Below are positions 1-18,347 of a DNA stretch of 37,727 nt, piece after piece (position 1 is the first letter of the stretch; each line of letters begins with the position of its first letter). The notes beneath the pieces are model-generated. The model searched no databases. It was not told where the DNA came from and saw only the letters and a program-made list of their open reading frames with translations. A program made the position numbers and the translations under genes. This stretch comes from a virus (Duplodnaviria; Heunggongvirae; Uroviricota; Caudoviricetes): positions 1 through 37,727 of IMG/VR virus record IMGVR_UViG_2909288124_000007; one strand, written 5' to 3'.

Positions 1-90
1 TTGCCTCCCCCCCGTTGATGGGTAAAATAGCCGCAATTTTTCGTTTTCAACAAGCGCGGCGCGATGCCGCTTACTCAAGAAGAAAGAATT

Positions 91-165
91 ATGACGTTGT
101 CTCCTTATTTGCAAGAGGTGGCGAAGCGCCGCACTTTTGCCATTATTTCTCACCCCAATAATTAA
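91..165 (+). pseudogene. prfC: 5' fragment of a peptide chain release factor 3 (prfC)-like gene: 22 native-looking codons, then divergent sequence and stop; host/prophage left junction
   Basis: Translation 91-156 is [22 protein letters not shown], which matches the RF3 N-terminus as I recall it (…AIISHPDAGKTT…); the frame then reads NN-stop (TAA 163-165) instead of the GTPase P-loop. An integrase gene follows. Confidence 0.7.
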
Positions 166-385
166 GCCCAAATTAAAGCTCTTTTACTCTTTCAAAATCC
201 TTTCAGTTAATTGAGATTGAGCTATATAACTCATTTAAATACATTTAGTTATGTGGCTTCTTTAATTGAAAATTCTTTCATGTAACTTTAAATCGATCTG
301 CTTGCTTTCATCAAAAATCTGTACATATGCTTGTACATAATGTACAAAGCAGCAGAGGTGTTTTGCGATTTGTACAAGGTGAGTA

Positions 386-1609
386 ATGGCGCTGTCTGAT
401 GCGTGGTTGCGTTCAGTCGTTGGAAAGGAACGTGATAAGGTTTTGGTTAAATCCGATCGTGATGGTCTGTCTGTCAGAGTATCACCGAAAGGTCGCGTAG
501 TGTTCCAATATCGTTATCAATGGGCAGGGAAAGGTGAGCGTCTTGATATCGGAACTTACCCAGCAACTGGATTAAAAGAGGCCAGAGAAGAAGTTATCCG
601 TCTCCGTGGTGAACTCGAGTCAAACCGTAATCCACGATTGGTCAAGCAGGCTGAAAAACGAAAAGCTACTGAAGCCATGACGGTAGAGTCTGTGATCCGT
701 GCCTGGTATGAAGCATATTGTGTAAAAAATAAAAAAGGCTCTGAACAGATACTCCGCTCGTTTGAGCTGCACCTGTTCTCTAAAATCGGGAATATCCCTC
801 ACGATGCAGCTACATTGCATGATTGGTTAGAAGTCCTGGAGCCTCTTAGCACTAAGACTCCAGCAATAGCAGACCGATTGCTAATTAACGCAAAGCAGGC
901 CCATGTCTGGGCGTATAAGAGAAAGCTCATTGAAACTCGCCCGCTGTCGGATATCACGGGTAAAGATATGGATATCCGTAAAGGTCAGAAGAAACGGTTT
1001 CTGACACATGATGAAATTAAAATCCTTTATGCTGCGATCGATGGTTCTCGAATGGTTCCTAAATACCGGGCCTTCATTAAACTATTGCTGCATTTTGGCT
1101 GCCGTAGTTCAGAGCTAATTACCGCCAGGGTGGACGATTTTGATTTCATTAATAAAGTATGGACTGTACCACCAGAACGACATAAGACTGGGGAGATAAC
1201 GGGCGAACCGCTAAAGCGGCCCATTATTGAACCGGTTGAAGAGCTTATAAAGTACGCTATTTCTATGAACAATGGTTCCGATATGCTTTTTACTAAGGAA
1301 GGAAGCAGGGAACCCGTTGGTCGGACATCATTGCAGTCGCTGCCTTACAATTTAATGCAGTATGCATGGCGGCGTTTGGGGTATCAATTCCCTCATTGGT
1401 CTCTGCATGATTTGAGGCGAACAGCACGAACAAACTTTTCTGATCTTACTGCGCCTCATATCGCAGAAATAATGCTCGGTCATAAACTGCCGGGGGTATG
1501 GCAAGTTTATGACAAGAGTGATTATTTAGAAGAACAGCGTAAAGCCTACCAGGCATGGTGGGAGAGAGTTGAATCGATTGTTACTTGTTCTGGTTCAGAC
1601 ACCAACTGA
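386..1609 (+). CDS. tyrosine recombinase / phage integrase with N-terminal arm-binding (P4-type) domain
   Basis: 407-aa ORF; N-terminus (LSDAWLRSV…GLSVRVSPKGRVVFQYRYQWAGKGERLDIGTYPATGLKEAREE) is typical of the DUF4102/arm-binding domain of P4-like integrases; C-terminus has an HxLRRT-like segment (WSLHDLRRTARTN) and a conserved Y region; sits next to the att junction. Confidence 0.9.
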   Translation: MALSDAWLRSVVGKERDKVLVKSDRDGLSVRVSPKGRVVFQYRYQWAGKGERLDIGTYPATGLKEAREEVIRLRGELESNRNPRLVKQAEKRKATEAMTVESVIRAWYEAYCVKNKKGSEQILRSFELHLFSKIGNIPHDAATLHDWLEVLEPLSTKTPAIADRLLINAKQAHVWAYKRKLIETRPLSDITGKDMDIRKGQKKRFLTHDEIKILYAAIDGSRMVPKYRAFIKLLLHFGCRSSELITARVDDFDFINKVWTVPPERHKTGEITGEPLKRPIIEPVEELIKYAISMNNGSDMLFTKEGSREPVGRTSLQSLPYNLMQYAWRRLGYQFPHWSLHDLRRTARTNFSDLTAPHIAEIMLGHKLPGVWQVYDKSDYLEEQRKAYQAWWERVESIVTCSGSDTN

Positions 1610-1781
1610 CAGTTTGCATATTTTGAACGCAATAAAATATGACAGTCCGCTTTGAGCGAGGAGCGGATATATGATGTTTAGAAAACGCGCGATTTGCAGT
1701 TAAGCAATCTAAGTTACTGATGTACTATACTGGAACTGCTGGCCAGTTTGTGTTGAACACCATCATTATCACAATAAGGAA

Positions 1782-3035
1782 ATGAAAGTTGAAATGAATA
1801 CTAAACTTTTGGCCTATTTAAACAATGAGTTACATGGAGTGTGGGTAGATAGTGAAAATCGTAATATCCACATAATACTTAAATCAAGCCTTCCTATAAT
1901 TAAATCCGTCTGGTCAGGAGCACCTATCCACTTTTTGGTAGGTTTATCTACTAAAAATATACTAGTGATTGGGATGTTGATTGAAGATAATGTCGATAAT
2001 CCATTTTTACTAGCCTATCCACCAAGAGAGGCAGATGAAATTAAAGGGCTGGATTTGTTATTGTCAGGCGCTTATGATGGTATTCTATTATCATTTTTTG
2101 ACTCGCATACAATGCGTGTTATGGACCTGAAAATAAAAGTTTCGGAAAATTTACCGTGTGAATGTTTAAAAAAATTTTGTGCTAATTCATATTCTCTCAA
2201 TTCAGGATTTAGGGAAGGTAATGAAGCAATGGATGAATTCTGCAACAATGCTTTGACTGGTAACGAGAAAATAATTAGTCTGCCACTAAGTGTAATCGAT
2301 AAAAAATCTTACCTAGCAAGTGTTCATGAACCAAACGATACCGTATTAACATATGAATTTAGCGTCAGTGAAAACGGCTCTGAGGGATATGAGCAGGAAG
2401 CTCTTATATACCATGCTTTGCGGCAGGTCTTTTCAACGGAGGAAGTGTTTTTTTCTCCAGATATTATTGAGGGTAATAAAAAAAGAGAACTAGTTGATAT
2501 TCTTATTGTAGAAAATGACTATGTATTATCTATACAGTCTAAAGCATCATCTTTGATTGAAATGGGTTTGAAATCTCATGAAAAGCTTTGTAGCATGTAT
2601 AAGAAAAAAGCATTGCAAGGGATCGATCAGGTTAAAGGCGTTATCCCAATTCTAAATAATGATGTGGTTATTAATTATGACGGGAGGGAATGCTTAATAA
2701 AGCGCAGAAAGGGTATTTATCATTTAGTGATAATCTCAGATCTTGTTTTAGAGAAAGAAGGTGCTGAAAAGATTTATAACGAAATTAGCAACCTTAAAGA
2801 GTCAAAAGGGGCGAAAGTTTTAGTTATGAGCCTTGAAGGTCTTGTAAATTTTATAAGACTATCAAGATTAAATAAAAGAATGTTTTGGGCAATGCTGGAG
2901 GCTAAATACAAGTTCAGCATAAAAAACCGTACAATTTTAATTAGAGATATCGACTCTAGCCAAGAGAATAATCTACCATTACTTGCCACTGATCAATACC
3001 TATCACTTCTTCGAGGTACGGGAAAATTAAAATAA
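1782..3035 (+). CDS. hypothetical AT-rich cargo protein (417 aa); candidate defence/abortive-infection effector with a possible PD-(D/E)xK-like core
   Basis: Long uninterrupted ORF with AGGA upstream (alternative start ATG 1794); base composition visibly far more AT-rich than flanking phage genes; lies between int and the xis-containing operon, convergent with the latter; no recognisable phage structural or regulatory motifs. Confidence 0.6.
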   Translation: MKVEMNTKLLAYLNNELHGVWVDSENRNIHIILKSSLPIIKSVWSGAPIHFLVGLSTKNILVIGMLIEDNVDNPFLLAYPPREADEIKGLDLLLSGAYDGILLSFFDSHTMRVMDLKIKVSENLPCECLKKFCANSYSLNSGFREGNEAMDEFCNNALTGNEKIISLPLSVIDKKSYLASVHEPNDTVLTYEFSVSENGSEGYEQEALIYHALRQVFSTEEVFFSPDIIEGNKKRELVDILIVENDYVLSIQSKASSLIEMGLKSHEKLCSMYKKKALQGIDQVKGVIPILNNDVVINYDGRECLIKRRKGIYHLVIISDLVLEKEGAEKIYNEISNLKESKGAKVLVMSLEGLVNFIRLSRLNKRMFWAMLEAKYKFSIKNRTILIRDIDSSQENNLPLLATDQYLSLLRGTGKLK

Positions 3036-3236
3036 ATTGTATCAATGATACTGTTGCCACGTATCGAGACTGGCTTATGAACGGAAGGGTTTTCCAGCAG
3101 TTCAGCGACCGGAGCTGCACATCGATGCCGGATTGTGCCTGCAATTATGTACTTGGCTAAGAGGTGCTGCTGGCTCTGGATAGAATAACCCTAACGTCCA
3201 AAGAGCGCGCATTTTCATGTAAAAAAATAAATAGCT

Positions 3237-3262
3237 TGTCTGCTCTTGATACAGAGCAGACA
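3237..3262 (-). terminator. candidate terminator hairpin closing the leftward early operon (between convergent cargo gene and xis)
   Basis: Perfect 9-bp inverted repeat tgtctgctc / gagcagaca with 8-nt loop; on the minus strand it is followed by a T-rich tract (plus-strand A-run 3221-3227) after a short spacer. Confidence 0.4.
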
Positions 3263-3320
3263 GTCAGATCTGTTTGGCTTGTGCCATAGATGTGCCAGCT
3301 CACATTTGAGCTAATGTTTG

Positions 3321-3515
3321 TTACTCAATTACTCCTGTAAACCTGTATATCTTACGTGATGCCCATTTATTTGGGCAGGATTTAATATCAGGATCTGGAA
3401 AATCAGGCCGATATTTCTGACCAGTCCTCCGGTTTACACTGTTCCAGCGAAGCACCGTCGATATTGAAACGCCACAGAATTCGGCGACTTGTTTTGTTGT
3501 CATTAAGTTGTTCAT
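3321..3515 (-). CDS. AlpA-family excisionase / small HTH transcriptional regulator
   Basis: Translation MNNLMTTKQVAEFCGVSISTVLRWNSVNRR… is the characteristic AlpA/Xis HTH; GGAGG 7 nt upstream of ATG at 3515; start overlaps stop of upstream gene (ATGA). The longer annotated ORF (to 3599) is an unsupported N-terminal extension. Confidence 0.75.
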   Translation of the reverse strand: MNNLMTTKQVAEFCGVSISTVLRWNSVNRRTGQKYRPDFPDPDIKSCPNKWASRKIYRFTGVIE

Positions 3516-3859
3516 TGTTGACCCTCCTGTGGTTGTGCAGTTGAAAGACTCATGCCAGCGCGTTGTTTCCAGACGACCCAGCCGAGAGCCATATCCCACG
3601 CCATGTACTCGTTATCACCGTTTTTTGCTCTCCGACGATCGACTGTTTTACCGAAACGCTTTTCCATAAATAATTCATAGGCTGCGCGTTCATCTGGCTC
3701 AACTTCCAGAGATGCCAGTGCAATCCGTGCCAGTTCTAAATCATCTTCAAGCTCAGCGCGAATCTCAGCGAATGCACTCTGTGTTAAGGCGAACTCAATG
3801 CTCTGCACTTTATTCCGTGCGCGCTCAAGTAGTGCATGGTAGTTAATTTCGGTTGTCAT
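3512..3859 (-). CDS. hypothetical phage early protein (115 aa)
   Basis: ORF with GAGG-containing RBS; ATGA start/stop overlaps with both neighbours indicate an operon. Confidence 0.55.
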   Translation of the reverse strand: MTTEINYHALLERARNKVQSIEFALTQSAFAEIRAELEDDLELARIALASLEVEPDERAAYELFMEKRFGKTVDRRRAKNGDNEYMAWDMALGWVVWKQRAGMSLSTAQPQEGQQ

Positions 3860-4734
3860 ACCCCTACCTCTTCGAATTTTAATTCCAATTGATCACCCCA
3901 GATTTCACATGACTCTGAACACGAGCCGGTATCGAATCGCCTGGCCTGTACCATCGCCTGATACAAATTTCTGTAGTCGCTGTTGGCAGACATTCTGGCA
4001 ATTCCGTCAAGCGTCAGGTGACCACGGTACATAACGTCTTTACCTGTTCTGCGATGACCATCCCTGACGTGTTTGCCTGTAACCAGCTCATTAAAAACTC
4101 GCATCAGACCAGGTTCGTCTTTACATGCAAGCCCCAGCTTTTGCGTTGACTTTTTGATGCAGAAAACACAGTTCCCGAGATGCTCCGGGATTTGCAAATC
4201 AAAAGGTTGTTTTCGCCACCACCGGATAACATCCGACTTATCAAAATCTGACAGTTCGGCAAGATACCGGATGCCCGATTTCGGTTTCAGCCTACGGGGT
4301 TCGTCTGCACGAATACCCAGCCATGTGATGTAATTACCTCGCCCGAAATGGTTATCGCAGTATTTCGTGAAAGGGATGAGTTTTAGCCTGTCAGTACAGA
4401 ACGCGCCACCGATGTATGGCGTGCCGTACTTTTTAACCATGTCCATAAACGGTTTAAGTACCGGCATTCGCGTCTGAATATCCTTTGGCTCCCATTCTGT
4501 ATAACCATTTGGCTGCCCAAGCTCAGGATTGATATCGACCTGCAACACAGTTAGTGGTATGCCCCAGAACTTCACAACCTCCCGAATAAAGCGGTATGTC
4601 AGCGGATGTTCGCAACCGGTATCCATAAAGATGTAGCAGACGTTATTGCCAGCCTTTCTTTGTTCTTCCATCAGGTGAACAAGATATGCGGATGTTCTCC
4701 CGCCAGAAAAACTAACTACATGAGTTATGCACAT
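3856..4734 (-). CDS. phosphoadenosine phosphosulfate (PAPS) reductase family / PP-loop protein
   Basis: PP-loop-like motif VVSFSGGRTS near the N-terminus (SGGxDS-type with Asp replaced by Thr). Start taken at ATG 4734 (MCITHVVSF…) because the longer ORF would overlap the upstream gene by about 120 nt; start uncertain. Confidence 0.65.
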   Translation of the reverse strand: MCITHVVSFSGGRTSAYLVHLMEEQRKAGNNVCYIFMDTGCEHPLTYRFIREVVKFWGIPLTVLQVDINPELGQPNGYTEWEPKDIQTRMPVLKPFMDMVKKYGTPYIGGAFCTDRLKLIPFTKYCDNHFGRGNYITWLGIRADEPRRLKPKSGIRYLAELSDFDKSDVIRWWRKQPFDLQIPEHLGNCVFCIKKSTQKLGLACKDEPGLMRVFNELVTGKHVRDGHRRTGKDVMYRGHLTLDGIARMSANSDYRNLYQAMVQARRFDTGSCSESCEIWGDQLELKFEEVGV

Positions 4735-5261
4735 TTGCGTAATTCCGATAACTCGTTGAAGCGTTCCATAAACATCCCGTAGGCATGGCCCGGTGCCAGT
4801 GGAATAACTTTGAACATCTCTGTTGCCGGGATACCTTCCAGTACAGGCCATAAAGAGCCATCATCAAGCCCGAGATCACGGCGTTCGGTTGCCAGCATGA
4901 TGAGATCGGCATATTTCACAGGCGTGCTCATAACCGGGGGCAACTCGTATTTCTCACGGATTACTGCATCTATTTTTTCTTCCATCCGTTTATAGTCAGG
5001 AAGAAGGCGTTTCAGTGGTGCGGGGATGTCCTGGCAATACGCTTCTGTTGCATCATGCATTAACGCTTCAAAAGCAAATTCCTGCGGCACCAGCTGGCTG
5101 CAAAGCACCGCATGTTGGGCGACGCTGTAGAAGTGAGAAAGATGACCGGCAAAGCGGCAGATATTTGAAAGGGAAACCGCGATATCGTTAATCACGATGT
5201 CGTCTTTATTTATCCTGTCATAATAAAAATGCTTCCCGGAAAAAGTTTTAATAAATGACAT
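4725..5261 (-). CDS. HD-domain phosphohydrolase (YfdR-like 5'-deoxynucleotidase family)
   Basis: H…HD-type metal-binding signature (…AQHAVLCSQ… / …LMHDATEAY…); GGAG 6 nt upstream of ATG at 5261 gives a 178-aa product; length and context resemble CPS-53 yfdR as I recall it. Confidence 0.7.
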   Translation of the reverse strand: MSFIKTFSGKHFYYDRINKDDIVINDIAVSLSNICRFAGHLSHFYSVAQHAVLCSQLVPQEFAFEALMHDATEAYCQDIPAPLKRLLPDYKRMEEKIDAVIREKYELPPVMSTPVKYADLIMLATERRDLGLDDGSLWPVLEGIPATEMFKVIPLAPGHAYGMFMERFNELSELRKCA

Positions 5262-5388
5262 TTTGTTCTCCACGTATATGCGCTGCACCGCGCTGAATTT
5301 GGGTAAAAGGAAGCCCTCACCATCCGGTGATTATTGAGTTAATTACGTTTCCATAAATGCCCCTGCAGGGGCATTTGCAGTAATGAAA

Positions 5389-6213
5389 TCAGGCGGTGAA
5401 AGTACCAATAAAGGTTTCTACTTTGCTGTCTTTGAATTTCTCAACAAGCAGATCACGAAATTCGTTAGCCATATCTTCCTGCACCGCTTCCAGCTGAATA
5501 ATGCGCAGAACCAGTACAGGACGATCGCCAGTGATAATGCTGAGGCGTAATTTAAACGGACGTTCTTTCAGACCTTCAAACGGAACGCATTTAAATTCAA
5601 ATGCCACTGGCATAATGTCTTTGGTCTTCGCTTCGACAGATTCCATCAGGGAGCGTTTGCCGCTGAAGTCATTATCTTCAAAATCAGCGGTCTGGTTTGC
5701 TTCAATCGTGATTTTACGGATTGCCGCAGCCGCTTTTGTTGCCTGAATGGCGTCACCATTAGCATCAAAGCCCACAAGGTAGTCGGCCCAGTCTTCAATC
5801 CATTCTGCCAGTGATTTCTGGGAGTTACGCTCGCCGTTAACAGACAACAGGGCAGAGAACGGTGCTGTCTTTTTCAGTTTGAGAGTGGCGGTGTTATCTG
5901 CGTGACCTGGTTCATCAATAGTACCCAGGTTAAGCACACTGACGGCACGCATATTATCAGCATCGATAAAGCAGCGGGTGCCTTCATCTGCAAGATCTTT
6001 AGAATAACGGGTAAAGTCATCGATGCTGGCAGTGGAAAGCGCACCACGGAAACGGAAGCGATTTAAATTAAATTTTTCCAGATCATGAATGCGGAAATTC
6101 TCAGGCAATGCCACAGCATCGGCACCAATCTTACTGATAATTTCATTAACACCCTGAGCAGAAATAAGGGCATGGATTTGATTAATTGCGGTTGCGTCTA
6201 AGTTCTGAGACAT
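5389..6213 (-). CDS. YfdQ-like protein (DUF2303-like), function unknown
   Basis: 274-aa ORF directly upstream of the HD gene in the same operon; size and neighbourhood match the yfdP-yfdQ-yfdR arrangement of E. coli prophage CPS-53 (from memory). Confidence 0.6.
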
Positions 6214-6278
6214 AATAAGTCCTCACTATATAAAGATATTCAGTGATGAGATAAATAATCAGTTAATTAAGAACGATA

Positions 6279-6641
6279 TTAATGACCTGCTGCGCGTAGT
6301 TTTCCGTCAGGTTCACCGGCAAGAGTCAGTAATTGTCCCTGGTCTTCCTGCAGAATAGTCAGGCGACCACCGCGATTGACATACATCGGCGTTTCGGTGG
6401 TGTCTTCTTCGGAAATTTTCCCGCGGTTAGTCGGGCGAACATATGAGAGTTTGTGTTTGATTTTTACACGGTTCTCATCAAACGGTTCGATTTCCAGGTT
6501 GAGCGAGACCTTACCTTTGGTTTTCGTGTTCATCACACCGGAAGCGACTTCACTGAGAACTGCGCCGATTTTGGTTTCAAATACGCCGCCGTCCAGCTCC
6601 CCGATAAATGCCTGCACATCAGTACTGCGTTCGCTAGCCAT
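6279..6641 (-). CDS. hypothetical early protein (120 aa; YfdP-like), first gene of the leftward operon
   Basis: GAGGAG-type RBS upstream of ATG at 6641 (MASERSTDVQAF…); the longer ORF to 6872 is an unlikely N-terminal extension into the leader. Confidence 0.55.
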   Translation of the reverse strand: MASERSTDVQAFIGELDGGVFETKIGAVLSEVASGVMNTKTKGKVSLNLEIEPFDENRVKIKHKLSYVRPTNRGKISEEDTTETPMYVNRGGRLTILQEDQGQLLTLAGEPDGKLRAAGH

Positions 6642-17337: not shown

Positions 17338-17491
17338 AACCCCTCAGCCTGATTTACCTGATCATTTTACGTGGGGCTCGAGCTTAGATCTGAATGTCGC
17401 CTTGTTGTCTGCATTGGCGCAGTGTAATACCGATAAAGCTGACATCAGAAGGATTGAAGTTGAGCGTGGTCACATCATGCAAAAAAAATGA
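17222..17491 (+). CDS. o-spanin (Rz1-like lipoprotein), overlapping the Rz frame and extending beyond it
   Basis: Start MMIVLHVLCLLPLLTGC with lipobox LLTGC; proline-rich; begins inside the Rz gene in another frame and runs past its stop. Confidence 0.6.
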   Translation: MMIVLHVLCLLPLLTGCGSTRTVYVQVPVVPLPASLTAETPQPDLPDHFTWGSSLDLNVALLSALAQCNTDKADIRRIEVERGHIMQKK

Positions 17492-17583
17492 TGTTAACTT
17501 TGTTTTGTTCCTTGATTTGATATGTGATGGCCCAATAGATACAAAGCACCTGATTTTGGTGACTCTTTTAAAGGGCTTTACAC

Positions 17584-17904
17584 ATGAAAGATGGTATCTA
17601 TTTTGTTGTTTTCAGAAGCAATCAACGTGATTTTGGTAATGGTACCGTAGTTGTCAAAAACAATGCAGTAAACGGCGGAGATTTTGGTTTTACGTATCAG
17701 GGAAAAATTGACGGTAGCCAACTTATTCTGCGCGTATCGCAGCATGATTTAAATGTCACCTCGGTTTTCCCTGGGGTAAAGAACTTTGAATTGAGTCTTT
17801 CTTTGCAGGAACGAGGACGTGATTACCTGTTAAATGGATCTGTGGTCGGAATGCCTCAGATGCAAATTTCAATTAGTGCAAAATACATTGGTGATCTGAT
17901 TTAG
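17584..17904 (+). CDS. GrlR-like protein (T3SS regulator GrlR family) moron
   Basis: MKDGIYFVVFRSNQRDFGNGTVVVKNNAVNGGDFGFTYQG… parallels GrlR (MKDGIYSIIFISNEDSCGEGILIKNGNMITGGDIASVYQG…, from memory); own terminator directly downstream. Confidence 0.55.
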   Translation: MKDGIYFVVFRSNQRDFGNGTVVVKNNAVNGGDFGFTYQGKIDGSQLILRVSQHDLNVTSVFPGVKNFELSLSLQERGRDYLLNGSVVGMPQMQISISAKYIGDLI

Positions 17905-17924
17905 TTTATCGAGATGATAATTGA

Positions 17925-17946
17925 ACCGCCTCCGGGCGGTTTTTTA
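17925..17946 (+). terminator. rho-independent terminator after the GrlR-like gene
   Basis: ACCGCC-tccg-GGCGGT hairpin followed by TTTTTTATT. Confidence 0.75.
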
Positions 17947-17996
17947 TTGCCATTTCTATGGTCTGTTCCATCGTAATAACTTAAAGGGAAGCATTA

Positions 17997-18347
17997 ATGC
18001 CGCCACGAACCCCGAAAGCCTGCCGTGTTCGCGGCTGCCGCCATACCACTACTGACCCTTCAGGCTACTGCGAAAGCCACAAAAGCGAAGGCTGGAAGCA
18101 ATACAAACCTGGACAATCCCGTCATCAGCGCGGCTACGGTTCGAAGTGGGACAGTATCCGCGCGCGTGTTCTGAAGCGTGACAAAGGCCTGTGTCAGTTA
18201 TGTCTGCGTGCTGGTGTGGTGCGTGAGGCGAAAACTGTTGACCACATCATCCCTAAAGCGCATGGCGGCACTGATGCTGACAGTAATCTGCAGAGTCTGT
18301 GCTGGCCGTGTCATAAGGCGAAGACGGCCCGTGAACGGTTGAAGTGA
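17997..18347 (+). CDS. HNH endonuclease (terminase-associated)
   Basis: Cys-rich N-terminus and HNH motif …VDHIIPKAHGGTDADSNLQSLCWPCHKAKT…; immediately upstream of terS, as in HK97-like cos phages. Confidence 0.8.
   Translation: MPPRTPKACRVRGCRHTTTDPSGYCESHKSEGWKQYKPGQSRHQRGYGSKWDSIRARVLKRDKGLCQLCLRAGVVREAKTVDHIIPKAHGGTDADSNLQSLCWPCHKAKTARERLK

Follow-up and report, generated by a model that had tools for sequence, protein, structure and literature searches.

A candidate stand-alone defence nuclease with a FokI-like cleavage module, carried in a cassette-exchange slot of a prfC-site prophage

Introduction

The cleavage domain of FokI and the small subunit of R.BspD6I are non-specific modules: to cut, they depend on being positioned or licensed by another domain or subunit. 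Type IV enzymes of the MspJI/AspBHI type combine two domains in a solitary protein, with a PD-(D/E)xK nuclease at the C-terminus and no methyltransferase, and this class tolerates a QxK variant of the motif. ZwsA of Pseudomonas is a stand-alone NERD-domain RNA endonuclease that acts as a defence effector and has the architecture VHS-DUF647-NERD-S4 (bioRxiv 10.64898/2026.04.06.716636). Here, we compare with these systems a protein encoded on IMG/VR virus record IMGVR_UViG_2909288124_000007 (Caudoviricetes), all 37,727 nucleotides of which were analysed and are referred to below as the window. The window is a prophage that in Escherichia coli lies between yjjG and the prfC remnant, and the gene in question, referred to as the cargo gene, occupies positions 1794–3035 on the plus strand, downstream of the integrase gene.

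An original prediction, made from the DNA alone, had proposed the product of this gene as an undescribed anti-phage effector with a restriction-endonuclease-like core. Our analysis supports that proposal as a candidate, the anti-phage activity itself being suggested by the genomic context. On balance, we consider it probable that the cargo protein is a stand-alone, sensor-gated defence DNA endonuclease that travels as swappable cargo of mobile elements. Residue numbers throughout count from the ATG at 1782.

The C-terminal nuclease domain

The structure of the cargo protein was modelled with AlphaFold2 from an alignment of 75 diverse relatives (16–60% identity; a set distinct from the 75 E. 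coli copies of the gene described below). The model has two domains, with a predicted local distance difference test score (pLDDT) of 92.3 and a predicted template-modelling score (pTM) of 0.91, and supersedes an earlier model from 13 close sequences (pLDDT 61). The C-terminal domain (2367–3032, plus strand) has the alpha-beta-beta-beta-alpha-beta core of restriction endonucleases. The catalytic residues fall on the model elements H201–214, E240–244 and E247–254, with the glutamate on helix 1, the aspartate on strand 2 and the (D/E/Q)xK motif on strand 3. Its closest structural analogues are the FokI cleavage domain and the small subunit of R.BspD6I, and DNA endonucleases account for all of the best structural matches; Foldseek agrees with these nuclease matches. 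The likeness to FokI, the R.BspD6I small subunit and Nt.BspD6I is one of cleavage-module fold, with a sequence identity of only 11–12%. Weaker structural matches are to restriction enzymes and defence nucleases, including CdiA-CT toxins, McrC, Hna, NucC, Shedu SduA, Avs4 and HamA. The match to SduA is weaker than those to the Type IIS cleavage domains, the cargo protein has no DUF4263 or PADLOC Shedu match and its N-terminal domain is different.

The residues of the putative metal site are strongly conserved. None of the 75 relatives departs from K34, G202, E206, P226, E236, D239, K254 or Q283. Position 268 is restricted to R or K, and position 252 carries E in 64 members, Q in nine and S in two. 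The catalytic codons lie at 2397–2399 (E206), 2487–2489 (E236), 2496–2498 (D239), 2535–2537 (Q252) and 2541–2543 (K254) on the plus strand, followed by those of the further conserved residues K268 (2583–2585) and Q283 (2628–2630). The family consensus, RELTDxL...LIESK, shows a canonical D...ExK signature with a helix glutamate ahead of it. The assignment of E206, D239 and Q252-x-K254 to a restriction-endonuclease-like core had already been made in the original prediction and is borne out by both the alignment and the model; an R-x4-H pair to which it had also drawn attention is not conserved, with G, C or A replacing H314 in most members. As modelled, the C-terminal half of the protein is a FokI/R.BspD6I-type PD-(D/E)xK module with an intact E206...E236-x2-D239...(E/Q)252-x-K254 metal site, and the protein is accordingly predicted to be a nuclease by activity.

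A distant relation to the NERD family (PF08378) is also apparent. With a cut-off of E <= 0.01, the Pfam profile matched 21 of the 75 relatives (best E 8.8e-6), at residues ~205–314 and over almost its whole length. The four NERD matches among ten relatives inspected singly scored 14–17 bits against a gathering threshold of 22.1 bits, and most relatives lie below this threshold. Faint matches to Hjc and to the Card1 endonuclease fall on the same segment. As the relation is distant and the threshold is missed, we do not place the family in NERD.

The protein family

Outside its own relatives, the cargo protein is close to invisible to profile libraries, as the original prediction had supposed when it recognised no known family. 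Pfam, NCBIfam and PADLOC (PADLOC-DB v2.0.0) gave no match at E <= 1, and the sole family match is to PHROG 30399, to which no function has been assigned. When the 75 relatives were scanned with PADLOC, only three single-member matches were returned, all with E > 0.003. Only 13 clusters (54–100% identity) were recovered from 5.8 billion proteins by a word-indexed search; their named entries come from E. coli, Serratia, Morganella and Yersinia and are all annotated as ‘hypothetical protein’. An exhaustive hidden Markov model search of 1.84 billion representatives extended the family to 225 relatives at E <= 1e-3, of which 81 pass the stricter cut-off of E <= 1e-10 and almost all are full-length (~400 amino acids), and added named members from Rouxiella, Pantoea and Aliivibrio, again all ‘hypothetical’; a final full-length profile search gave no extra named relatives. 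A search of GTDB for loci with a close alignment returned one locus only, in Kluyvera. The cargo gene was not found in 50,697 sequenced phage genomes, which fits a dispensable cargo. It is under purifying selection, with a dN/dS (ratio of nonsynonymous to synonymous substitution rates) of 0.27 against the Kluyvera copy.

Three other leads were discarded. A match to malic enzyme in a sequence search of the PDB (E 0.007) was judged to be due to chance, and a profile search of the PDB was empty. Residues 42–116 matched 21 stretches of P0055 (E 1.5e-16), a 2,283-amino-acid repeat protein secreted by the type IX secretion system (T9SS; CHU_C, DUF5489), which was treated as a spurious artefact of repeats or composition. 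Membrane association was rejected, as the maximum KD19 hydropathy is 1.76 and there is no transmembrane segment.

The family also appears to be undescribed. No published description was found in the literature checked, which included Rousset 2022, Hochhauser 2023, two Nucleic Acids Research papers of 2026, the ZwsA preprint, CMoRE and an accession search, and which subscription papers partly fall outside. The protein matches neither the hotspot systems of 2026 (Crouga, Bandua, Aernus, Toga, Reve and Hailong; PMC13586616) nor CMoRE (GIY-YIG) or ZwsA. A domain-centric screen of E. coli excluded single-gene systems (PMC13069673).

The N-terminal domain

The N-terminal domain (residues 1–195; 1782–2366, plus strand) is a new sequence family, beta-rich in the model and acidic, with an isoelectric point (pI) of 5.1 and a net charge of -8, and is presumed to be a sensor or gate. 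It is modelled with a pLDDT of about 90–97. It has a conserved set of its own: K34 (1881–1883) and D69 (1986–1988) are invariant, W21 (1842–1844) and K41 (1902–1904) are near-invariant, all with codons on the plus strand, and D/N107 is among the invariant or near-invariant positions. The acidity is a family-wide property, with a median pI of 5.07 and a median net charge of -8; the pI lies below 6 in 93% of members. The nuclease domain is neutral to basic.

Nothing similar to this domain was recognised. Against Pfam, even at E <= 10, it gave single-member noise with no consistent signal, and the PDB held no credible structural analogue. The notion that it might be a duplicated, degenerate copy of the nuclease fold was rejected on an hhalign probability of 0.9% against the C-terminal domain. 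A profile search with the N-terminal domain only (5.8 billion proteins) returned two fragments and no alternative domain architecture; in the searches run, the domain is always paired with the FokI-like nuclease domain. In its predicted features it has no similarity to known DNA-recognition domains and is acidic, and this acidity argues against a simple DNA-targeting domain and mildly favours an autoinhibitory or protein-sensing role. We infer that the N-terminal domain is the gate or sensor partner of the nuclease.

The cargo gene and its slot

The cargo gene can be read from either of two in-frame ATG codons. The upstream one, at 1782, gives the 417-amino-acid product of the original prediction; the second, at 1794, gives 413 amino acids and is the start in the RefSeq annotation (WP_016249556.1, ‘hypothetical protein’). 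Since RefSeq uses the second ATG, the position equivalent to 1782 is not an ATG in the Kluyvera ortholog and most close homologs begin at the equivalent of M5, 1794 is likelier to be the true start. The AT-richness that first drew attention to the gene is confirmed: its G+C content (GC) is 0.339, with 0.285 at third codon positions (GC3), against a whole-window mean of 0.510 (standard deviation 0.051, in windows of 1254 bp). It is the lowest of 730 such sliding windows, about 3.3 standard deviations under the mean.

The gene lies between two conserved flanks. To the left is the tyrosine integrase gene (int) of the prfC-site prophage (386–1609, plus strand), and to the right is a gene for a 64-amino-acid helix-turn-helix (HTH) protein (3321–3515, minus strand) that ends a minus-strand operon convergent to the cargo gene. 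The original prediction had placed the gene between int and an operon containing an excisionase gene (xis). The integrase and the convergent leftward operon are as described; the excisionase label is plausible and not proven, as the HTH_17/MerR matches of the 64-amino-acid protein in Pfam are weak (E 4e-4, under the Pfam threshold), and we refer to it as a presumed excisionase. The hairpin that had been said to separate the cargo gene from this operon is real. It lies at 3237–3262, ~200 bp beyond the cargo stop codon, with a 10-bp stem and a calculated energy of -17.6 kcal/mol (z -3.4), and as its U-run is on the minus strand it is read as the intrinsic terminator of the leftward operon. A second hairpin lies just 3' of int (1645–1668, plus strand; -16 kcal/mol, z -2.4).

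Comparison of prophages at the same site shows that the slot, rather than the gene, is conserved. Among 5,426 complete E. coli genomes, 700 carry the integrase and only 75 the cargo gene, the copies of which are all at least 99% identical, stand in the same context every time and are annotated as intact. The original prediction had suggested that the int–xis interval be compared across related prophages as a possible variable hotspot; the slot is indeed variable, as it carries another cargo, different in each, in all six of the sister prophages sampled. These cargoes are two small open reading frames (ORFs) of no assigned function, proteins of 331, 342 and 460 amino acids, a DUF4365 nuclease-like protein, to which an IS3 element has been added, and a dGTPase. 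The dGTPase matches the PADLOC dGTPase model at 8e-105, and the DUF4365 protein matches the model of an Argonaute-associated restriction endonuclease (REase).

Pairwise blastn of window positions 1–6300 against the six sister prophages (L002–L007) gave sharp breakpoints, with homology on the integrase side running to ~1651–1658 and restarting at ~3251. The exchanged unit is thus a cassette of ~1.6 kb (~1658–3250, no strand assigned), the lowest-GC block of the window, which holds the cargo gene as its only ORF. Its left junction falls inside the hairpin at 1645–1668 and its right junction inside the terminator at 3237–3262; that both breakpoints lie inside stem-loops suggests that conserved terminator hairpins act as recombination flanks for cassette exchange. 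The cargo gene is therefore hotspot cargo in the operational sense of Rousset 2022 and Hochhauser 2023, with conserved flanks, variable content and a dGTPase in the same slot elsewhere, and the E. coli defence hotspots tabulated by Hochhauser et al. 2023 (PMC10121019, supplementary file 2) include prfC–yjjG as number 35. By these comparisons, the slot beside int in prfC-site lambdoid prophages is a hotspot of cassette exchange, with both junctions in hairpins.

Four of the sister cargoes have no Pfam or PADLOC match, namely the proteins of 331, 460 and 342 amino acids and the pair of 150 and 160 amino acids (examples at L003:6591–7586, L006:6396–7778, L007:6514–7542 and L002:6325–7301, respectively). 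They are further candidate defence genes.

Genomic contexts of the relatives

The family is found on at least five classes of mobile element. Its neighbours differ each time, with none conserved across at least 11 contexts: the gene travels alone. Neither a methyltransferase nor any other partner recurs from context to context, the only methyltransferase genes being unlinked phage Dam-type ones in some elements. In a P2-type prophage the family gene lies between baseplate and tail genes and adjoins a DUF6602/PD_DExK gene, and in a P2/186-type prophage of Pantoea it lies between gpA and the portal gene, a slot that in P2 is the old/tin hotspot (Rousset et al. 2022; PMC9122126). A P4-like satellite of Rouxiella carries it between int and Ogr/Delta. 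In a lambdoid prophage of Morganella it sits between int and icd and directly adjoins PD-T7-1 (PADLOC 1.6e-156); the full-length PD-T7-1 homolog (Morganella morganii, L010:6401–7759) lies between int and the family member, so that two single-gene cargoes are stacked at the int–icd edge.

Most of the remaining contexts are plasmids and islands. A Yersinia plasmid has the gene beside Mrr_cat, PLD and HEPN genes. The Salmonella Senftenberg plasmid pCFSAN006211 (CP074286.1; L022) has a 90.6%-identical copy at 34544–35788, next to an IS110 transposase gene; it is a 110-kb IncFIB plasmid in which genes for Rha, DHFR, thymidylate synthase, a phage Dam and an exonuclease mark an SSU5-like phage-plasmid. 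An AlpA island carries LRR and SNase genes alongside, and a serine-recombinase element also has a family member. Of two metagenomic islands, one holds a Gabija-like OLD-TOPRIM/UvrD pair, an ADP-ribosyl toxin gene and a CAP12-TIR gene, and the other DUF4365, HNH and PRTase-CE/AAA genes. Finally, Kluyvera sichuanensis has an 89%-identical copy (L008:8001–9252) flanked by an IS3-family transposase gene and a gene for a 361-amino-acid REase-fold protein, the matches of which are weak (MmcB-like, Tox-REase-9 and NucS_C); this locus is probably a decaying islet. The cargo gene thus shares its genomic niche with dGTPase, PD-T7-1, P2 old/tin and DUF4365 nucleases, to which it is unrelated in sequence, the link being purely positional. 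Hotspot genes of no assigned function gave defence in six of eight tests (PMC13586616).

Proposed function

A nuclease that is solitary, has no methyltransferase and coexists with host and prophage DNA must stay inactive until it receives a cue. The N-terminal domain is the obvious candidate for the gate or sensor, as it is specific to the family and has an invariant site of its own, and the nuclease needs gating. In the lysogen, the N-terminal domain would hold the nuclease off. On infection, it would recognise a cue, which may be a phage protein or a feature or structure of phage DNA, and this would license cleavage, probably through oligomerization as in FokI. Cleavage would then destroy the phage DNA and possibly also that of the host (abortive infection). 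A further step, which we put forward tentatively and with more doubt than belief, is that the N-terminal domain represents a previously unseen class of infection sensor, directly gating a sequence-independent FokI-like module within one polypeptide and reading either a protein of the phage or some feature or modification of DNA that has no known reader so far, and that the family makes up a new defence system of one gene, distributed over hotspots of the lambdoid, P2, P4, phage-plasmid and island types.

Several observations weigh against a sensor-gated defence endonuclease. The cargo protein itself has Q at position 252 in place of E, a variant specific to the E. coli clade; it gives no NERD match at E <= 1 and reaches no NERD threshold. 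The Kluyvera copy is frameshifted near residue ~380 and has lost its last ~37 residues. No convincing sigma-70 promoter was found upstream of the cargo gene, the best candidates having 8/12 matches. Hotspots also carry anti-defence, toxin–antitoxin and other accessory genes, such that guilt by association can mislead.

The cargo protein is not a Type IIS R–M (restriction–modification) enzyme, as it has no methyltransferase and no recognizable recognition domain. A companion methyltransferase is expected of such systems and none is present in the cassette or in any other context; the recognition domains of FokI and BspD6I are unrelated to the acidic N-terminal domain, and the gene is hotspot cargo instead of part of an R–M operon. 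A Type IV enzyme, which needs no methyltransferase, would account for the solitary organization: the N-terminal domain would read a modified base or backbone (hydroxymethylcytosine, hmC; glucosyl-hmC; or another hypermodification) and the FokI-like domain would cut nearby. The MspJI/AspBHI type resembles the cargo protein in its two-domain layout. We regard this as unlikely, however, since the net charge of about -8 is unusual for a DNA reader, no SRA, PUA, EVE, McrB-N or other modified-base reader fold or family was detected in the N-terminal domain, and the phages of the family's hosts vary widely in DNA modification.

The solitary gene could instead serve the mobile element, as an addiction toxin, as a weapon against competing elements or plasmids, or in degrading host DNA on induction. 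This is improbable: the cassette has no partner or antitoxin ORF, and a protein antitoxin was rejected for want of any second ORF. The gene also stands outside the early operon, to which it is convergent, and the slots of the family are those that validated defence genes occupy (dGTPase, PD-T7-1 and the old/tin locus).

Cutting of RNA, either phage transcripts or RNA genomes, by a NERD-type endonuclease in the manner of ZwsA seems very unlikely. ZwsA is likewise the product of a single gene, and its essential residues E535, D567, E580 and K582 are spaced nearly as E206, D239, Q252 and K254 (bioRxiv 10.64898/2026.04.06.716636). It is, however, a much larger protein, and its RNA-binding S4 domain is absent from the cargo protein, in which no RNA-binding domain was detected; the N-terminal domain is unique to the cargo family, and the DNA endonucleases that make up the best structural matches point the other way. 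Q252 and the frameshifted Kluyvera ortholog would suit a remnant without catalytic function, or a regulator that binds DNA and is no enzyme; this reading can be given little credence in view of the invariance of the remaining catalytic residues across about 75 lineages, the dN/dS of 0.27 and the intact, near-identical E. coli copies.

The cargo protein is probably a new anti-phage nuclease, of a single-polypeptide kind carried in mobile-element hotspots. A defence role would not be surprising in kind, given how often hotspot genes of no assigned function prove to be defensive. If it is correct, E. coli and the Enterobacterales have a further single-gene immune system that Pfam, NCBIfam and PADLOC have missed, in which a well understood FokI-type module is joined to a new sensor; what this sensor recognises would reveal how infected cells can be distinguished from uninfected ones, or phage from host DNA, in a new manner. 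Should the sensor reading be true, the protein could also interest biotechnology as a compact ‘sensor plus FokI’ scaffold. Even an ordinary Type IV enzyme would be a new enzyme family, with a possible use in mapping DNA modifications.

Other features of the window

In the leftward early operon are genes for a PAPS-reductase-domain protein and for a YfdR 5'-deoxynucleotidase (3856–4851 and 4725–5288, respectively, both on the minus strand). The first of these ORFs, as listed, has 331 amino acids and begins ~39 codons upstream of the RefSeq start (292 amino acids). The only other internal low-GC patch (17401–18000, GC ~0.39) contains a 106-amino-acid ORF (MKDGIYFVVFRSNQ...; 17584–17904, plus strand), which is flanked by Rz/Rz1-like lysis ORFs on one side and by an HNH ORF and the small terminase on the other, a typical position for a post-lysis moron.

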